A stretch of DNA of 23,911 nt, from the NCBI GenBank assembly GCA_050008495.1, contig JBEKMN010000087.1, positions 1-23,911 on the forward strand, given 5' to 3'. The notes below the pieces were generated by a model that was not told the origin of the DNA, made no database searches, and was given only the letters and a program-made list of their open reading frames with translations. Shown one piece after another: positions 3,857 through 18,054 of this stretch (its first letter is position 1; each line of letters opens with the position of its first letter). The position numbers and the translations under genes are program-made. The stretch is from Terriglobia bacterium (GTDB lineage: Bacteria > Acidobacteriota > Terriglobia > UBA7540).

Positions 3857-4924
3857 TTACCTACCCTTCGCCATACGTGCGCGCGGCTGGGCCTCCCTTA
3901 CCACGACCACCGTCGCGTCGTCGGTGTCTCTCGCATGACGGTTTAACAGATGTTGGGCGGCGCGGGTGGCGGAGGCGTCCCGAAGTTCAGGATAATCTGC
4001 CCATTCCCAACGGGCCGACACCCCGTCCGAGTGCAACACCATCACTTGACTTGGTTCCCAATGGTGCTCGGTGATGACCGGATGGGGAGCGTTCAACCCG
4101 ATCAAGCCGCGCCGCACCAAAAAGTTCATTTTTTGTGGACACGCAAACACGCGAGCTTCGATGTTGCCGACGCTGGCAAAAATAAGGCTTTCACTCCCCC
4201 AATCGAATCGCGCTAGCGCCATCACCACTCCTTGTGTTCCACGACAGGCTCGATCCACGCCGCAGAAGAGAGTGTCCAAAGGCCGGTCGTAATGTGCCTC
4301 GACAAAGAGTTGAGCCTCTCGTGCCGCCTGAAATGCCAATTGCCCGTGTCCCACTCCGTCAATCACTCCCACCAGCGCGTTTTCACCCCACCTTTCCAGA
4401 ACGAAAGTATCGCCATTTTTCTCTTGCCCCGGATGGGGTCGAGTGGCCGCGCCCATGTCCAGGGGACAAGGCTTGAGGGTAGTGTTTTTAAGCAAATTCC
4501 AACGCTGGCAGACGATGCGCGTCCCCTTTTCTCCCACGCCCCTCGAAGAGATAATCAAGTCGTCCATGAGCCGGTTGACCGCTCCCAAGCCGCACCCCAG
4601 GCTGCCGGCAGTGGAATAGCCATCCGCGATGGCTTGCTCCACATCGCTGATCCCTGGGCCCCTGTCGACGGACTCGATTTGAATTCCTGCCCGCTCGCTC
4701 TCGCGAGTTGGGATGAGCGTCAGCCTGCCTCGACCAGCATGTTTCAGGAGGTTGGAAGCCAGTTCGGTCACCACAACCGCCACTTCTTCGCACTCCCTCA
4801 CGCCGAAACCTAGCGCCCGGGCCATCGTCCTGCCTGCCTGCTGAGCGGTACCCACGTGGCCGGCCTGAGAGACTTCAATGGATTGCTCCGCAATGTCATT
4901 GCGGCCAGTCATTTCCGCAGCCAT
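3857..4924 (-). CDS. Fusion protein: RsbT/RsbW-like HATPase (serine kinase fold) N-terminal domain plus RsbX-type PP2C phosphatase C-terminal domain
   Basis: The N-terminal half (VVVTELASNLLKHAG...DRGPGISDVEQAIADGYSTAGSLGCGLGAVNRLMDDL) aligns with the adjacent RsbT. The C-terminal half (GDTFVLERWGENALVGVIDGVGHG...VMVLHSDGV...DDATVVVV) carries PP2C/SpoIIE-type motifs. It overlaps the rsbT stop by 16 nt. Confidence 0.8.
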   Translation of the reverse strand: MAAEMTGRNDIAEQSIEVSQAGHVGTAQQAGRTMARALGFGVRECEEVAVVVTELASNLLKHAGRGRLTLIPTRESERAGIQIESVDRGPGISDVEQAIADGYSTAGSLGCGLGAVNRLMDDLIISSRGVGEKGTRIVCQRWNLLKNTTLKPCPLDMGAATRPHPGQEKNGDTFVLERWGENALVGVIDGVGHGQLAFQAAREAQLFVEAHYDRPLDTLFCGVDRACRGTQGVVMALARFDWGSESLIFASVGNIEARVFACPQKMNFLVRRGLIGLNAPHPVITEHHWEPSQVMVLHSDGVSARWEWADYPELRDASATRAAQHLLNRHARDTDDATVVVVREAQPRARMAKGR

Positions 4925-5319
4925 TTCCGCACCCTCACCGTAGTGCCCTTTCCCACTTCTGTGTGAATTTCCATTTCATCCATCAACCGTTTGACGCCGG
5001 GCAGGCCCAGACCCAGTCCGCGACTTGTGCTGTAGCCGGGCGTCATGGCCTGCTCGACATCCGGGATGCCGGCTCCGTGGTCTTCGAACGTTAGCTCCAG
5101 GCCCACTTCCCCGCTCCGGTCGAGGATGGACCACCACATAACACCCGCACCTACGTAAAGAAATACATTGCGAGCCAACTCGGATGCGGCGGTAATGACG
5201 CGCGTGACATCGGTGACTCCAAAGCATAACTGCGTAGCCAGATCCCGTACGACCCGTCGCGCGGCAACGATGTCGTTCTCGGACTTGATGGGAATATTCC
5301 CCCGTGCTAAGTCGCTCAT
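4909..5319 (-). CDS. rsbT: RsbT-like stressosome serine kinase / switch protein
   Basis: 136 aa, collinear with B. subtilis RsbT: DIVAARR...ELARNVFLY.GAG...EDHGAGIPDVEQAM.PGYSTS.GLGLGLPGVKRLMDE...GKGTTVRVRKW. The start overlaps the rsbS stop. Confidence 0.9.
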   Translation of the reverse strand: MSDLARGNIPIKSENDIVAARRVVRDLATQLCFGVTDVTRVITAASELARNVFLYVGAGVMWWSILDRSGEVGLELTFEDHGAGIPDVEQAMTPGYSTSRGLGLGLPGVKRLMDEMEIHTEVGKGTTVRVRKWLRK

Positions 5320-5699
5320 CGTATTCGCCTCCGAGGGTGCAGGTGGGTCAGCAGATCCAGGGCGCGGTCTACCGTAAGCGCCGTGAAAGTGCCAACCATT
5401 GTCAAGCCCAACTGCGTGGCGGTGATGGCGACACTCGGGCGCATTCCGGCGATCACTGTTTGTCCCCCCATCATGGTCACCATGCGGCTGGTTTCGGTGA
5501 TCGTGCGCGCGAAAAAGGAATCGAGCGTCTCGACAGCGGAGATATCCAGCACCAACCCTTTCGGCCGGTATTCTTCCATGGCCCCCAAGACCTCCTCCTG
5601 GAGGGTCGTCACCGTTACGTCGTCGGGGTCGGCGGGCATCGTCACCAGCAGCGTATTGCGCACCTTAACCAGTGAGATATTTTGGTTCGTCATTGCCAT
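5316..5699 (-). CDS. rsbS: RsbS-like single STAS-domain stressosome scaffold protein
   Basis: 127 aa. LLVTMPADPDD...GLVLDISAVETLDSFFAR...MMGGQTVIAGMRPSVAITATQLGL is collinear with B. subtilis RsbS, including the conserved phosphorylatable Ser in the DS motif. Confidence 0.9.
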   Translation of the reverse strand: MAMTNQNISLVKVRNTLLVTMPADPDDVTVTTLQEEVLGAMEEYRPKGLVLDISAVETLDSFFARTITETSRMVTMMGGQTVIAGMRPSVAITATQLGLTMVGTFTALTVDRALDLLTHLHPRRRIR

Positions 5700-5726
5700 A
5701 ACTCCTTCCGGAATAGAGGGAATGTC

Positions 5727-6590
5727 TCACAAGGAGTGCGCTCCCTTGGCCTGATCTTCCTGGGTGATAATCTTGAGGTTGAGGATGTCCAGCGCCACGC
5801 GCAGCCCGGCCGCCAGCGATGAGCGAGTCACAACATCCGCCAGGTTGATCCCCAAATGCGCGAGGGTCTGGGCAATCGCCGGCCGCACGCCCGTCAGTAT
5901 CGCCTGCGCCCCCAACAACCGCACGGAGGTGATGGTCTCGATCAGGTGTTGCGCGGTTCGCGTATCAATGGCCGGGACGCCCGTCACATCCAGGAGGGCG
6001 ACCGCGGAGTTGGTCTGCACAATCTTATCCAGCAAGCGTTCCATGAACTGCTGCGCCCGCTGGGTATCCAGCGTGCCGATGAACGGCGCGACAACCACCC
6101 CTTCCCACACTTGCAGTACGGGAGTGGAAACATCCAGGATTTCCTTGGCCCGCTCGGCCAGTGCCTCGCGCATCCTCTTTTGCTCGGTAATGTCTCGGGC
6201 CGTAGTCGAGGCTCCGATAATTTGGCCGGAGGCATCGCGGATGGGCGAGACATTCAGAGAAAGGTCAATGACCTCCCCATCTTTCGTAACCCGGGTAGTC
6301 TCAAAGTGACTTACACGTTCTCCCCGTTTCACTTTTTCGAGGATCGCGGGTACCTCGTCAGGTTTGTTGGGGGGCACCAGAACGCTGACGGGCCTGCCCA
6401 CCATCTCCGCCGCCGAGTATCCATAAATCCTTTCGGCGCCGCGGTTCCAGCTCAGGATCGTGCCATCCAGGGTTTTACCGTAGATGGCATCGTCGGAGCA
6501 CTCTACAATCGACGCCAGATAGGCCTGCGAGGCAACTCCCTCGATGTCTTCAAGGGCCGCCGTACCACTCAATTTGCTTCTATTTGCCAT
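5727..6590 (-). CDS. rsbR: RsbR-like stressosome sensor: N-terminal PAS domain plus C-terminal STAS domain
   Basis: PAS: SIVECSDDAIYGKTLDGTILSWNRGAERIYGY...ARDITEQKR. STAS: VLQVWEGVVVAPFIGTLDTQRAQQF...LLDVTGVPAIDTRTAQHL...ILTGVRPAIAQTLAHLG. I place the start at the ATG at 6590-6588, which is preceded by GAGGAGGAAAGGAAA. The track ORF extends to 6758, but those 56 extra codons are Arg/Gly-rich junk. Confidence 0.85.
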   Translation of the reverse strand: MANRSKLSGTAALEDIEGVASQAYLASIVECSDDAIYGKTLDGTILSWNRGAERIYGYSAAEMVGRPVSVLVPPNKPDEVPAILEKVKRGERVSHFETTRVTKDGEVIDLSLNVSPIRDASGQIIGASTTARDITEQKRMREALAERAKEILDVSTPVLQVWEGVVVAPFIGTLDTQRAQQFMERLLDKIVQTNSAVALLDVTGVPAIDTRTAQHLIETITSVRLLGAQAILTGVRPAIAQTLAHLGINLADVVTRSSLAAGLRVALDILNLKIITQEDQAKGAHSL

Positions 6591-12803: not shown

Positions 12804-12960
12804 CCTAATCCGTCGGTAACGACTGGCGGAACTGGTAAGGGGCACGGCCATGGTCCCCGCGCCACATCCGGTATCACCCGGAGGGTGCTACCTGTAGGGG
12901 CGAGGCGGCGCCTCGCCCCTACTTCTCTGCCGCCGACCCGCGCGCTATCGACGGATTAGG
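12804..12960. mobile_element. MITE-like / REP-like palindromic element (157 bp)
   Basis: Perfect 12-bp terminal inverted repeats: CCTAATCCGTCG (12804-12815) and CGACGGATTAGG (12949-12960). TCAATC flanks both ends (12798-12803 and 12962-12967), a possible target-site duplication. An internal hairpin at 12894-12922 (GTAGGGGCGAGGC-GGC-GCCTCGCCCCTAC) has a perfect 13-bp stem. No ORF. Confidence 0.45.
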
Positions 12961-13025: not shown

Positions 13026-13283
13026 ATGCTCGATTGGTCACAGTGCCCCGTGGTCGAAAGCATCCCGGGTAAACGCAGCGGCGCCTGGGTGTTCCGGGAT
13101 ACGCGGACGCCGGTGTCAGTTGTTTTTGACAACCTGGAGGCGGGCGCCTCGATCAACGAAATCAAGGAGTGGTTTCATCTCTCCCACGAGCAGGTAACCA
13201 CCGTCATCGAATTTGCCGCGCGAAGCCTTGACGCGCCGCCGCTCCAGCCCGCCGGCCCAACGCTCGATGCTCGTACTCTTTGA
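13026..13283 (+). CDS. DUF433-family protein (putative antitoxin)
   Basis: 85 aa. ESIPGKRSGAWVFRDTRTPVSVVFDNLEAGASINEIKEWFHLSHEQVTTVIEFA fits the DUF433/COG2442 pattern (G..P.f.gTR.pV..v...L..G.s..eI...f..l....v...l.fa). GAGGGGG lies upstream of the ATG. It overlaps the next gene by 17 nt. Confidence 0.7.
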   Translation: MLDWSQCPVVESIPGKRSGAWVFRDTRTPVSVVFDNLEAGASINEIKEWFHLSHEQVTTVIEFAARSLDAPPLQPAGPTLDARTL

Positions 13284-13593
13284 CAACGGCGTCCCCGCTC
13301 CGCTCCGGCATGCGCTCAAAGGCCACGTGGTGGTGGAAGCGTTCGAGCGCGGATGGGATCGGTTTCTTAACGGCGAACTGATCGCGGCTGCCGAGGCCGC
13401 AGGCTTCGAGGTTTTGGTGACCACGGACAAAAACATCCGCTACCAGCAGAACCTAAGAGCGCGGAAAATCGCCTTCGTCGTTCTCGGCGATCAGCAGTGG
13501 CCCACTTTGCGTCGATTTGTTGACAAGGTTGTGGCCGCTGTCGATGCGGCGACTCCCGGTGCTTACGTCGAAGTCGAGATACCGTTGGAGTGA
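13267..13593 (+). CDS. DUF5615/COG4634 PIN-like protein (putative toxin)
   Basis: I start it at the ATG at 13267 (MLVLFDNGVPAPLRHALKGHVVVEA...GELIAAAEAAGFEVLVTTDKNIRYQQNL). This is the typical small PIN-like/Mut7-C-like pattern found next to DUF433 genes. The track ORF starts 18 codons earlier. Confidence 0.65.
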   Translation: MLVLFDNGVPAPLRHALKGHVVVEAFERGWDRFLNGELIAAAEAAGFEVLVTTDKNIRYQQNLRARKIAFVVLGDQQWPTLRRFVDKVVAAVDAATPGAYVEVEIPLE

Positions 13594-13648
13594 AAGCCCA
13601 TCCCCTGCTCCCGGGCCAAAACGGTCGAAAACACCAACCCGCTCACAA

Positions 13649-13743
13649 GTAGGGCAGCGCAGACCTGCGTCTTTTGCAGGTCTGCGGTTCTTTGCCTGGG
13701 ACCACTCCAAAAGCAGCAGACCTGAACTTCAGGTCTGCGCTAC
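13649..13743. repeat. Pair of REP-like GC-rich hairpins built on GCAGACCTG
   Basis: Hairpin 1 (13659-13685): GCAGACCTGC-gtctttt-GCAGGTCTGC, a perfect 10-bp stem. Hairpin 2 (13716-13738): GCAGACCTGAA-c-TTCAGGTCTGC. The outer arms GTAG(GGCA)GCGCAGACCTG and CAGGTCTGCGCTAC are also complementary. It sits just after the DUF5615 stop, and hairpin 1 is followed by GGTTCTTTG, so it may also act as a terminator. Confidence 0.6.
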
Positions 13744-15543: not shown

Positions 15544-15728
15544 CTCTCACCTCTCCAAACTCGCCTCCACTGGGCTGTAGATAACCTCTGTACATTGAAC
15601 GCCCAGGACCCCAGAGCTTGCAAGAAAAATGGAAACAAGGGCCACGCGTATGCTCCAGCGCCGAGGAAGAAAAGCGGATGCCGGTTCCGTGGCGGGATCG
15701 GACTTTCTGTTCTCTCCGCATTTTTCTC

Positions 15729-15757
15729 TTGACAAATAGAGTGCCATAGGCTAGAAT
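15729..15757 (+). promoter_or_regulatory. Near-consensus sigma70-type promoter pointing rightward into the gene-free repeat region
   Basis: TTGACA (15729-15734), a 17-nt spacer, then TAGAAT (15752-15757). The predicted TSS is about 15764. No credible plus-strand CDS follows for about 900 nt. Confidence 0.5.
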
Positions 15758-15866
15758 GATGCTGTGGGGTTAGGCAGGCGGCCAGGGCCTGCCGGATGCG
15801 TTATGCTGGGAAGCCTTCCTCGGGTTTCGTCTGTGGTCCCTGCCTGTGGTTCCTGCCTTCAGCGCC

Positions 15867-16531
15867 GTCAAGAAGTCGAGGAGTCAAGGAGTCGTGGAGT
15901 TGGGTGTTCGAACCCGACTGCGACTTCATCCTTCCGGCCGCAGGCCGGCAGGTGGCCGGCCTCTCCTTGCCTCCTCGACTCCCCAGCTCTTCGACTCCAG
16001 AATTCAACGAACGATCCGGGAATGTCTATGAAAACAAAGGAAGAGGTCAAAAAGTCAAGAAGTCGAGGGGTTGAGGAGTCGAGAAGCGACAGCAGCGCGA
16101 CCAAGTTTGGGGAGAAAGTCCATAGGCGTCCCGTCGGGCAGTTGCCGGACTCTCGACTTTCGACTCTTGACTCTCAACTTTCTCGGGGAACAAAGCGAGA
16201 ATGCCTATGAAAACAAACAGTCGAGGAGTTGAGGAGTCGAAGAGTTGTGTAGTTGTGGGGCCAATTGAAGAGATCGGGCCGGATGGTGACGCTTTGTCAC
16301 TCCTCGACCTTCGACTCTCGACTTCTCGACTTGAATTCGACGGAACAAAGCGAGAATGTCTATGAAAACAAAGGACGAGGTCAAAAAGTCGTGTAGTCAA
16401 GTGCCCCCTCACCTGGCTCGCTACTCTCGCCACCCTCTCCCCAACAGGAGAGGGCCGCTGATGATGTTTGTTTTCAGTATGCAGAAATCGTGGGAACGAA
16501 CCTAAGAAGTCGTTGAAAACAAAGGAGGTCA
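15867..16531 (+). repeat. Tandem mosaic array of long imperfect palindromes, each followed by a conserved A-rich box (unknown element; possible structured ncRNA or nested MITE array)
   Basis: Three units at about 15867-16040, 16041-16218 and 16219-16373, plus a degenerate tail. The left arms carry ~8-nt periodic AGTCGAG/GAGTCAAG motifs, and the right arms carry the complementary CTCGACT/CTTGACTC motifs. The centres are unique and GC-rich. The conserved box GAATGYCTATGAAAACAAAGGAMGAGGTCAAAAAGTC occurs at 16020-16056, 16199-16218 (short) and 16354-16390, with a degenerate copy at 16514-16531 and an inverted TTTGTTTTCA at 16467-16476. Confidence 0.75.
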
Positions 16532-16665
16532 CGTTCTGTAGAGTGCAAAAACGAACCCAAAACGAACCCGGAATTGCGTGTCAAATCCCGGATTGGACCG
16601 CAGAAGTGAGCTTGACGGGCGGAGAAGTGCGGCAGCGAACGGAACAGCCTGCGGATCGATGCGCG

Positions 16666-18054
16666 CTACCTGCGGCGTTGGTACGTGAACATATACTCGG
16701 TGCGGTCGGGGTTGCGCGCGAAGATCTGGGTAGTTTCGAGCGAGTCGGCGAGGCCGTCGGCGGCCGAGCCCGGCAGCCGATCGTTCGAGAGCGCGAAGCC
16801 GCCGGGGTTCAGCATCAGCGCCATGTTCAGACGGGCCAGTGCCTGTTCGAATTCCCCGAAGTAGACAAAGACATTCGTGCCGATGATGAGATCGAAACCG
16901 GTTTGCGCTGCCCGGGCGGGACGCTCGATGACGATGTTTGTATCCAAGGGGGTGATGCGAAGCACGACGGCAGGGCGAATCTTCACGGCGCGAGTCTCGG
17001 TCGCCGCCGCGGCGGCGGCAGGAACGGCGATGGGCGGCACGGGTTCGCCGATGCTCGAGCCGAGTTTCTCCCAGTACTCGGTGAAGGCCTGGCGATATTC
17101 GTCCGTCATCCGCGCCGCGGTGTTCCAGGGAAGCTGGACGACGTAGGCGCGTCCGGCAGCCGCACTTTTCCTGGCACGCGCCATGTGAAAGTTAACCTCG
17201 GAACTGATGTCCAGGGTGTAGAGTTCGACGGAGGCCGGGTTCGAGAGGCCCAAGCGGACGAGAGAATCGAGAACCGCAAAGGGCTGAATCGTCTGCCGCG
17301 GGTAGAAATCGTTCCCCATTTCCTTGTTGGCAAAATCCAGTCCCGGCCCGACCACCGCCACACGATGCACGGAACCGGGGCTCAGCAAGCCCTTCCGGAC
17401 CATGTTCGCCAGGTGCTGGTCAATCAGAAAGTCGGGCCAGAGGTTGGTATCGAGGGAAATGCCGCGGTCCTCGAAAAGCTGGAAGCGCCCGCCGGCCTGC
17501 GTCTGGCTGATGTAGCGCCGGATTTCGTCGCGCATCCGCGCCAGGTTCGCCAGCAGGTAACTCTTGACCCGCGCCCGGTCTTTCGGCGTCGCGAAGGAGT
17601 AACCCTTCTTCTCGAGGAAGGCGCGCAGGTGCGCGACGCCCTCGTTGGCGTTGCCGGACGCCATGGCGCGCACGAGATCGTTGGCTCGATTCTCCGCGAA
17701 GGCGTTGACCAGCGTGCTCTGGCCGTACTTGAAAAGGTACGGGTCGTCGATGCGGTATTCCTTGGTGAAAGTGACCCCGAAGCGAAGCAGGTTTACAAGC
17801 GTGTCCTCTTCGCCGCGGTCGAGCCGCGCGCGGATCTCCGCATCTTCCTTGTGCATCCAGTCGGCCCAACGCTGGGCGGTGAGCGGACTGGGACCGCTCA
17901 GTTCCGCAGGAAGATTCGCGGCCGCGGCGCGGAGCAGGGGCTGCGCTTCCGCGAAAGACAAGTATTGTAGGCTATTCGAGGATTCCGCCGCCGCCCCGCC
18001 CGCAGCGCACAAGGAAGGGAGGATGAGGCATAGAAGGCAGCGTGGGAGATTCAA
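16666..18054 (-). CDS. Signal-peptide-bearing protein with a class I SAM-dependent methyltransferase-like fold
   Basis: TTG start at 18054, with GGAGGAG 4 nt upstream. Signal peptide MNLPRCLLCLILPSLCAAGGAAA. The C-terminal half carries Rossmann-MTase-like motifs: HRVAVVGPGLDF (motif I-like), VELYTLDIS (acidic motif II-like), FDLIIGTNVFVYF and LNPGGFAL. Confidence 0.5.
   Translation of the reverse strand: MNLPRCLLCLILPSLCAAGGAAAESSNSLQYLSFAEAQPLLRAAAANLPAELSGPSPLTAQRWADWMHKEDAEIRARLDRGEEDTLVNLLRFGVTFTKEYRIDDPYLFKYGQSTLVNAFAENRANDLVRAMASGNANEGVAHLRAFLEKKGYSFATPKDRARVKSYLLANLARMRDEIRRYISQTQAGGRFQLFEDRGISLDTNLWPDFLIDQHLANMVRKGLLSPGSVHRVAVVGPGLDFANKEMGNDFYPRQTIQPFAVLDSLVRLGLSNPASVELYTLDISSEVNFHMARARKSAAAGRAYVVQLPWNTAARMTDEYRQAFTEYWEKLGSSIGEPVPPIAVPAAAAAATETRAVKIRPAVVLRITPLDTNIVIERPARAAQTGFDLIIGTNVFVYFGEFEQALARLNMALMLNPGGFALSNDRLPGSAADGLADSLETTQIFARNPDRTEYMFTYQRRR

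Follow-up and report, generated by a model that had tools for sequence, protein, structure and literature searches.

Acidobacteria belong to the most abundant bacteria of soils, and the control of their gene expression is poorly understood. In other lineages, several families of small intergenic repeats have been described. BOX elements of Streptococcus pneumoniae are modular (boxA-boxB(n)-boxC) with a variable number of internal modules; BOX and the Correia/NEMIS elements of Neisseria are intergenic, form stable hairpins and are co-transcribed with neighbouring genes, and Correia elements can carry promoters. The short tandemly repeated repetitive (STRR) sequences of heterocystous cyanobacteria are intergenic tandem heptamers of several types, found in one lineage. 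Repetitive extragenic palindromic (REP) sequences and bacterial interspersed mosaic elements (BIMEs) have been defined previously (PMC2817692, PMC3733652), and these definitions were used here for a tandem array of hairpins in a stretch of 23,911 nucleotides (nt) from a Terriglobia bacterium (GenBank assembly GCA_050008495.1, contig JBEKMN010000087.1, positions 1 to 23,911; hereafter the window). We consider it likely that positions 15698-16535 of the window are one copy of a lineage-specific, high-copy, composite intergenic element of uncultured Terriglobia, similar to BIMEs and to REPINs (REP doublets) and built on a scaffold of promoter, leader and box. The family was dispersed and modular, had a fixed orientation linked to a promoter, and showed no coding constraint; transcription of the element, which is probable, would give a long, structured, untranslated RNA. 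The scaffold would consist of a short left-end segment, a sigma-70-type promoter module, a 5' leader and a few tandem box units of about 45-51 nt. Palindromes of several unrelated families would lodge in or between the box units, at about a constant place, giving arrays of box, hairpin and box. No description of the family was found in Rfam or in the searched literature (Acidobacterial intergenic repeats, non-coding RNA motifs and boxA sequences), and it seems to be undescribed.

Like BIMEs, REP sequences and REPINs, the family was high-copy, extragenic and lineage-specific, with tandem imperfect palindromes joined by conserved linkers; as in REPINs, the arms were conserved and the centre was variable. 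However, REP sequences are palindromes of 20-40 nt with a GTAG/CGTC tag, whereas the palindromes of the window were 120-140 nt long, untagged and provided with arms of 7-8-nt repeats (CGTC preceded the first hairpin only, by chance). Units of the family were direct rather than alternating as in BIMEs, and the arrays were polar and attached to a conserved promoter and leader. An earlier note, made from the letters of the window alone, had recognised no known REP or BIME type in the array. This remained true of the untagged window hairpins but not of the layout, which was BIME-like, or of sister arrays, which held GTAG-tagged REP doublets. The family shared with BOX and Correia elements the construction from a few module types in variable internal number. 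It had no sequence relationship to them, however; its promoter was a constant terminal module and its linker was the most conserved part. As with STRR sequences, tandem repeats of 7-8 nt and of several sequence types filled the intergenic DNA of one lineage, but here they often stood in complementary left and right blocks, forming long hairpins embedded in box arrays. Three features set the family apart from BIMEs and REPINs and from BOX, Correia and STRR elements: the promoter-leader module is constant, the polarity is strict and the linker is very conserved.

In having a leader with a promoter, and behind it direct repeats of about 43 nt with variable segments in between, the array also recalls clustered regularly interspaced short palindromic repeats (CRISPR). 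In a CRISPR- or integron-like array, the box would be the repeat or att site and the hairpins the captured cassettes. This explanation was largely refuted, and we give it almost no credence. CRISPR repeats (23-47 nt) are regularly spaced, whereas the boxes were spaced irregularly, by 179, 155 and 151 nt in the window and by 51 to 330 nt elsewhere. CRISPR spacers are unique, non-palindromic and 26-72 nt long, whereas the inserts were palindromes of 100-140 nt in the window and 100-300 nt in the family, common to several loci and genomes. None of the window genes had a cas, integrase or transposase domain, although no RAYT-directed search was made, and none of the Rfam CRISPR direct-repeat families matched. 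Viral contigs gave 15 exact matches to a 19-nt box core; none had the extended box, so these matches are probably due to chance. Unlike integron cassettes, the units were non-coding, and visual inspection of the bases of the hairpins, made without an attC model, showed no attC core sites (RYYYAAC ... GTTRRRY). The array was neither a CRISPR array nor an integron, as the note had stated.

The family was small, non-coding and dispersed in many copies, in which it resembled miniature inverted-repeat transposable elements (MITEs). An ordinary MITE was rejected, because no terminal inverted repeats joined the unit or array ends and the orientation was fixed relative to a conserved promoter. Among the three explanations offered by the note, a nested pile-up of MITEs or modules nevertheless came closest: small palindromic families were dispersed as it supposed, but the missing terminal inverted repeats and the promoter-tied orientation did not fit.

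The array in the window

The array filled an intergenic gap of 1122 nt, and gene callers called nothing within the array region. Its parts and the two flanking genes were as follows.

15698-15727, + strand: left edge of the repeated element, CGGACTTTCTG...CATTTTTCT, upstream of the -35 hexamer
15728-15757, + strand: predicted promoter module CTTGACA-N-ATAGGCTAGAAT, with the -35 hexamer at 15729-15734 and the -10 hexamer at 15752-15757
15765-15866, + strand: 5' leader of the 'GTGGGGTT' subfamily, with a hairpin at 15773-15793 and a 13-nt tandem repeat at 15831-15858
15867-15998, + strand: hairpin module H0, with 8-nt periodic arms at 15867-15900 and 15963-15998
15999-16041, + strand: box 1, extended, with the core GAATGTCTATGAAAACAAA at 16019-16037
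16042-16177, + strand: hairpin module H1, with arms at about 16041-16089 and 16148-16180
16178-16220, + strand: box 2, with the core GAATGCCTATGAAAACAAA at 16198-16216
16217-16335, + strand: hairpin module H2, a conserved hairpin family, with arms at 16219-16255 and 16299-16332
16333-16375, + strand: box 3, with the core at 16353-16371; reference copy of the repeat family
16376-16483, + strand: module 3, without periodic arms, with a GC hairpin at 16433-16454 and an inverted partial box at 16465-16476
16484-16535, + strand: box 4, degenerate, TTGAAAACAAAGGAGGT, at 74% identity; last family-derived segment
14521-15543, - strand: trypsin-like protease gene, one flank of the array gap
16666-18054, - strand: gene for a protein of 462 amino acids (aa) with a weak methyltransferase match, the other flank; its 3' end faces the array

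All the features that the note had listed were found in the sequence, subject to the corrections given below. The box core TGAAAACAAA stood at 16029, 16208, 16363 and 16514, at the spacings given above. When ATGAAAACAAAGGA was searched with up to two mismatches, 3 matches were obtained against 0.27 expected, a number reached in none of 100 shuffles. The AGTCGAGG dimer of the arms, with up to three mismatches, gave 11 matches, all within 15866-16331, against 0.32 expected (again reached in 0 of 100 shuffles), and Tandem Repeats Finder assigned a period of 7-8 nt to all arms, in agreement with the reported 8-nt periodicity. The stem given as an example paired at 17 of 18 positions (15874-15891 with 15963-15980), and the pentamer counts between 15867 and 16320 were the same, with four GAGTC and six GACTC. 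All units were much more stable than their own shuffles when folded (z = -2.5 to -3.7), H0 having a minimum free energy of -66 kcal/mol (z = -3.5). The + strand of H1 folded at -57.3 kcal/mol against -48.7 for the - strand; the corresponding values for H2 were -55.4 and -43.7 kcal/mol. Each of the three or four box units of the window had a hairpin, with one more in the leader.

Some details needed correction. The inverted copy of the box was present, extending over 12 nt (16465-16476, pairing with 16208-16219) rather than over 16467-16476. All boxes shared the core, but the long form ending in ...GGAMGAGGTCAAAAAGTC was restricted to boxes 1 and 3. The proposed unit layout did not extend to the fourth unit (16376-16512), which lacked 8-nt periodic arms and had the degenerate box at 74% identity. 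The cores had been described as unique. For H0 and H1 this agreed with our comparison, in which neither core matched any of the fetched loci (the arms of H1 alone did match other loci). By contrast, the core of the third hairpin (16250-16300) was 80-86% identical to loci of three other metagenome-assembled genomes (MAGs), and the whole hairpin, core included, was 73-88% identical to copies in 8 loci (relatives in L029, L065, L031 (twice), L079, L111, L110 and L118 (twice)).

No + strand gene followed the array on its 3' side, and the - strand 462-aa gene had terminators of its own (16552-16594). These terminator-like hairpins were overlapped by a perfect tandem duplication of 11 nt (AAAACGAACCC, two copies at 16548-16569).

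Dispersal, promoter linkage and modules of the family

One genome per GTDB species was scanned for the exact 19-mer GAATGYCTATGAAAACAAA, and the locus counts given here are among the matches listed. The scan returned at least 115 stretches, of which at least 112 belonged to Acidobacteriota/Terriglobia MAGs (at least 23) recovered from SPRUCE peat and Microflora Danica soils; the remaining three looked like chance matches. At least 13 loci were found in one long-read MAG. The listed loci contained at least 176 exact box copies, and a profile found at least 230 boxes, one to four per array; the extended consensus, taken from 174 copies, was aaAAttga.gGAACaAAGCGaGAATGTCTATGAAAACAAAGGa. Boxes were better conserved than their own flanks, and their orientation was uniform within every array. 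Most arrays (105 of 115) lay outside crude gene calls, in all gene contexts. The gene 5' of the array was co-oriented in 49 cases and opposed in 48, whereas the gene 3' was co-oriented in 58 and opposed in 37. Unrelated genes stood behind some of the elements, including those for secreted enzymes, a binding protein and an oxidoreductase. Rfam gave no matches at gathering thresholds on the window or the arrays of 18 loci, and only chance-level matches at permissive E values up to 10 on the array and the hairpin-free base element described below.

Dispersal to many unrelated sites, here at least 112 loci in at least 23 MAGs, is an outcome that the note itself had named as refuting, and one of its proposals, a structured non-coding RNA specific to the locus, was not supported. 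A second proposal, a cluster of GANTC methylation or protein sites, was not supported either. In other loci, the arms were made of 7-8-nt CAGGATT, GGTAGGT, GAATGGT or GCTGAGG repeats, sometimes without a complementary partner, and the first three of these contain no GANTC. The window as a whole was depleted in GAGTC (37 found, 54 expected); the local GANTC cluster is a by-product of the repeat unit.

The strong promoter that had been reported upstream of the array, in the same orientation, was recovered. The predicted module TTGACA-17-TAGAAT at 15729-15757 agreed with the sigma-70 consensus at 11 of 12 positions and pointed rightwards, into the array; it occurred once in the window against 0 expected by chance. 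Similarity among family copies started 12-30 nt 5' of the -35 hexamer, and TTGACA was present within 900 nt upstream on the box strand in 92 of the 115 listed arrays. Around it we found a conserved module, (c)GGACTtc.TGTCTCTTGACAAAC-N-(G)ATAGGCTAnnnT. Of 44 strict matches to the module, 42 had a box less than 700 nt downstream on their own strand, and a looser pattern matched 75 of the 115 array loci but none of 120 rRNA loci. The predicted promoter is therefore part of the repeated element. Within the module, the -35 hexamer and ATAGGCTA were kept while the intervening spacer was free to vary, which looks like selection rather than youth of the copies.

Leaders fell into two subfamilies, and the 'GTGGGGTT' type was common to the window and eight loci (L039, L098, L100, L083, L056, L071, L022 and L064), whose leaders were 73-80% identical to that of the window. 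A base form free of hairpins consisted of the promoter, a leader of about 165 nt and three boxes about 51 nt apart. In 12 loci, the conservation of this form extended over about 330 nt and ended sharply past box 3.

The left-end segment CAGACTTCCTGTCT (15698-15711 in the window), just 5' of the -35 hexamer, was a palindrome AGAC-N5-GTCT in sister loci, with an inverted copy about 160 nt downstream, within the leader. The two copies were 100% complementary over 14 nt in L116 (2721-2734 and 2896-2909) and 78% complementary over 18 nt in L080 (2334-2351 and 2505-2522). In both loci this inverted repeat of 14-18 nt bracketed the promoter-leader part only, and the arrangement resembles either two operator sites or a small inverted repeat enclosing that part.

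At least four kinds of palindromic module stood between the boxes. The kind found in the window, with arms of AGTCGAGG-type repeats, occurred in about 21 loci. The others were a GC-rich double hairpin, a GGCGCAGAC... hairpin, and GTAG-tagged, REPIN-like REP doublets (e.g., L054 568-638), which were present in L054, L010, L046 and L103. Differing hairpin families sat between identical boxes, and L010 had one REP doublet plus box more than its paralogues. Every segment of 15698-16535 had homologues in other loci: beyond those of the leader and H2, the arms and layout of H0 were common to L039, L022 and L056, and parts of module 3 recurred in L071 (twice), L056, L083 and L111. Recombination at the conserved boxes, or insertion at specific sites, may have spread or shuffled modules between arrays.

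Related repeats were also seen away from boxes. L014 (1800-2080) had a hairpin with (GAGTCGA)n/(TCGACTC)n arms around a second long hairpin, GTCATTCCGAGCGGAGCGAGGAATC...; this nested structure adjoined a gene start and had no box or promoter module near it. In L127, the region 5' of a 76%-identical protease homologue (5052-6000) was rich in repeats, with three tandem 47-nt units (CGCCCAAGCCGTGCCACCTTGGGTGGTTGACACCCCGAGGGGAAAA) and long runs of 8-nt TTTCCAGT-type repeats, and boxes were absent from it. The intergenic DNA of these genomes seems to carry short-period tandem repeats in general.

The identical locus recurred in nine metagenome contigs carrying an identical protease; these were 100% identical wherever the array was covered and so gave no information from synteny. 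Short-read contigs of the window locus from independent assemblies ended exactly at module edges, two at about 15702-15714 (the left edge of the promoter module) and three at 15869-15885 (the start of the first periodic arm), as multi-copy repeats would be expected to cause (L006, L009, L003, L007 and L008). The elements make long unannotated intergenic regions in Terriglobia MAGs and coincide here with contig ends, and a model of the family would improve annotation. The nearest protease homologues (76 and 67% identity) had no array upstream, one of them in a MAG with the family elsewhere; these loci were not syntenic with the window, so that the evidence of gain or loss is weak.

Such contig ends and array-free homologues would also fit repeats that are selfish or neutral at the level of DNA and have no role in RNA, their conservation being due to youth, gene conversion, or sites for a transposase, recombinase or nucleoid protein. 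The occurrence in all gene contexts, the REP doublets within arrays, the palindromic AGAC-N5-GTCT left end with its inverted copy about 160 nt on, and covariation that did not exceed that of shuffles (below) favour the same explanation. We nevertheless regard it as quite unlikely, given the retention of the -35 hexamer and ATAGGCTA around a variable spacer, the boxes that were always on the promoter strand, and the downstream genes that were more often co-oriented than opposed (58 against 37 among the listed arrays).

The putative transcript and its boxes

That the arrays kept a fixed orientation towards the promoter speaks for a role at the level of the transcript. In the window, a rightward transcript would start at about 15765 and extend over some 770 nt, untranslated and rich in hairpins. 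It would run convergently into the 3' end of the 462-aa gene, to which it would potentially be antisense; at other loci, it would form a long 5' leader of the next gene. Direct evidence from structure was weak: the sense strand folded better in 10 of 14 hairpins, a tendency only. Selection may act on the single-stranded, A-rich box as the functional part, which would most likely be an RNA platform for protein binding.

Several results weigh against the element as interpreted here and against its action as RNA. An exact 19-mer query biases the sample towards conserved boxes. No pair of empty and filled sites was found, so that mobility and insertion points are putative, and the promoter is predicted from its consensus match and conservation. 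L030 had two hairpins that folded better, by 8-9 kcal/mol, on the antisense strand. Among members of the H2 family, the right arm was near-invariant and the left arm varied mainly between C and U opposite G; changes were mostly one-sided, from G-C to G-U, and 3 of 32 pairs were doubly changed among 10-12 sequences. Helices drawn by hand for the 5' domain had 67.9% paired cells against 66.3% in shuffles, again with 10-12 sequences, and RNAalifold gave a weak consensus for this domain.

A multi-copy structured RNA acting in trans, for example as a sponge, would also account for many of these features. In this case, the hairpins would be scaffolds presenting GGA-rich heptamers (CAGGAUU) and the single-stranded A-rich boxes ACAAAGGA to CsrA, Hfq, NusB/E or a similar RNA-binding protein. 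The strong conserved promoter, the defined right boundary, the lack of coding constraint, the tendency of the sense strand to fold better and a box conservation exceeding that of the flanks are consistent with such an RNA. Further, 37 of the 95 listed arrays with a callable downstream gene faced a convergent gene, as the array of the window does, and so cannot be 5' leaders. CsrB-type RNAs carry CAGGAUG repeats, and runs of CAGGATT/CAGGAGT reminiscent of them (at least ten heptamers) stood directly 3' of the promoter without a complementary arm in L052 (about 4880-4960, - strand) and L075; these roughly ten unpaired CAGGATT repeats would suit a sponge. However, covariation was not significant, module content and number varied freely by copy, similar hairpins occurred away from boxes and Rfam gave no match. 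A trans-acting RNA is rather unlikely in our view.

Our preferred candidate for the box is a boxA-like site for Nus factors that would let RNA polymerase continue through the untranslated hairpins without being stopped by Rho; we put this forward tentatively. The boxA consensus of gamma-proteobacteria is GYTCTTTAANA. According to published work, boxA recruits NusB/E, prevents Rho-dependent termination in untranslated RNA and acts near start codons too (PMC5725501; PMC12360218). As in the boxB-boxA module of rRNA operons and boxA in mRNA leaders, an A-rich single-stranded motif followed a hairpin in the array, with a strong promoter upstream. The boxes would lie on the sense strand of an untranslated transcript, downstream of the promoter and following hairpins, and would be repeated along it. 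The core TCTATGAAAAC also resembled TCTTTGACAAY or TATTTGAAAAC of rRNA boxA. By contrast, the U tract of the array box was broken, the second conserved block GGAACAAAGCGAGAATGT had no rRNA counterpart, and the box family had dozens of loci per genome.

For this comparison, an unbiased set of 120 Acidobacterial 16S 5' ends with at least 300 nt of upstream sequence each was used. The rRNA leaders contained a boxB-like hairpin, CCGCTCAGGCGG, and about 10 nt further on G(G/A)TCTTTGACAAY..AGGTTGAACGTGCCA, with GATATTTGAAAACTAGATAG as a minor variant; the 16S-23S spacers contained GAT(N)TTTGACAACTGAATAG. The pattern TNTWTGAMAAY was found exactly once in 71 of the 80 leaders whose coordinates were listed, no more than 300 nt from the 16S gene and on its strand, against a chance expectation of about 0.002 per leader. 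It also matched 16S-23S spacers and nearly every array box, but it had been written to include the box, whose match is therefore no independent test. The box core agreed with the phylum boxA, G(R)T(N)TTTGA(C/A)AAY, at 8-9 of 11 positions, with A in place of an rRNA-invariant T. Aligned rRNA boxA copies kept TTTGA, whereas boxes had TATGA, ATAGA or GTTGA. With up to one mismatch, the rRNA-derived pattern gave 5 matches in the window against 1.6 expected; three of them were boxes 1, 3 and 4, box 4 being one position off (it also had 1 mismatch in the box pattern search). In a targeted metagenome scan, TGAAAACAAA was present 85-145 nt upstream of a 16S gene in no rRNA leader. Identity of the box with rRNA boxA itself was rejected, as the 120 leaders showed a related but distinct boxA. 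The limited resemblance makes the box boxA-like, not a demonstrated boxA.

Two further matches touched on this motif. In two Acidobacterial rRNA operons (L179, 3284-3292, and L191, 1457-1465), TGAAAACAAA stood just 5' of an rRNA-promoter -35, in the position of an UP element, which may be coincidence or a hint of action at the DNA level. On the + strand of the window, a perfect match to the rRNA boxA pattern (TCTTTGACAAC) at 13277-13287, where a DUF433 gene (13026-13283) meets the small gene that follows it (13267-13593), and a match with one mismatch at 13123-13133 were probably due to chance.

A broader and more doubtful proposal is that the genome-wide set consists of dozens of portable promoter-leader cassettes, in which boxA-like boxes would recruit an elongation or RNA-binding factor and palindromes would be captured between them, as a new class of insulating or regulatory array at the RNA level or as a titrating RNA of the Nus/CsrA type. 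If so, the expression levels of many unrelated genes downstream would depend on the cassettes, which in convergent cases would produce antisense RNAs. At dozens of sites per genome, the family brings together a near-consensus promoter, a long untranslated region rich in hairpins and a highly conserved A-rich motif. If active, the elements would add to these genomes a major set of promoters, leaders and antisense transcripts that annotation has so far missed. The family is also a natural system for studying how REPINs and BIMEs come to occupy transcription units without polarity, and whether boxA-like sites serve that.

Coding potential and minor observations

The box contains ATG TCT ATG AAA ACA AAG (MSMKTK), and the units could be read as a translationally coupled chain of small open reading frames (ORFs), with the box as start codon and a TGA overlapping the next ATG (window ORFs 16028-16210, 16207-16365 and 16362-16505). 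Coding was checked by translation of 61 units, ORF statistics and Pfam. Two window units were open from the box ATG to a TGA overlapping the next ATG (ATGA), with lengths of 2 mod 3. Over the 61 units, spacing mod 3 was distributed 29/14/18, with 2 mod 3 somewhat enriched, and the ATG frame was open in 35 units compared with 17-25 for the other frames; the units are related copies, so these counts are not independent. In L048, the chain ended in an ATGA overlap with a real gene. However, L030 had no coupling to the downstream gene. Homologous modules were read in all three frames, depending on the copy (PLLIQGGEF, PPYPRRGI, PCLSKEGNS), with stops in many copies. Degenerate boxes lost the ATG (ATA, GTT) and kept GAATGT and GAAAACAAAGG, the arm period of 8 nt is not a multiple of 3, and Pfam gave no matches on the units. 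Coding units were rejected because reading frames were not conserved among homologous copies, and we consider a chain of coupled ORFs very improbable. The ATG...TGA pattern is an unexplained minor signal.

Long real ORFs opened at a box ATG (MSMKTK...) in L046 (4587), L065 (5183) and L026 (211), which is in the direction expected of a coding chain. They encoded an S1/P1-nuclease-like secreted protein, a periplasmic binding protein with a signal peptide and a membrane acyltransferase-like protein, respectively. For the two secreted proteins, no alternative start codon would give the signal peptide a charged N-terminal region.

Two Acido-Lenti-1 RNA motifs were found in L071, divergent and about 3.5 kb from the array (5094-5140 on the - strand and 5222-5268 on the + strand); they were unrelated to the box family. 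The window had two other intergenic inverted repeats, also unrelated to it: one of 18 nt at 12804-12821 and 12943-12960 (89%, arms 121 nt apart) and another of 26 nt at 13643-13701 (73%, with a 7-nt loop).

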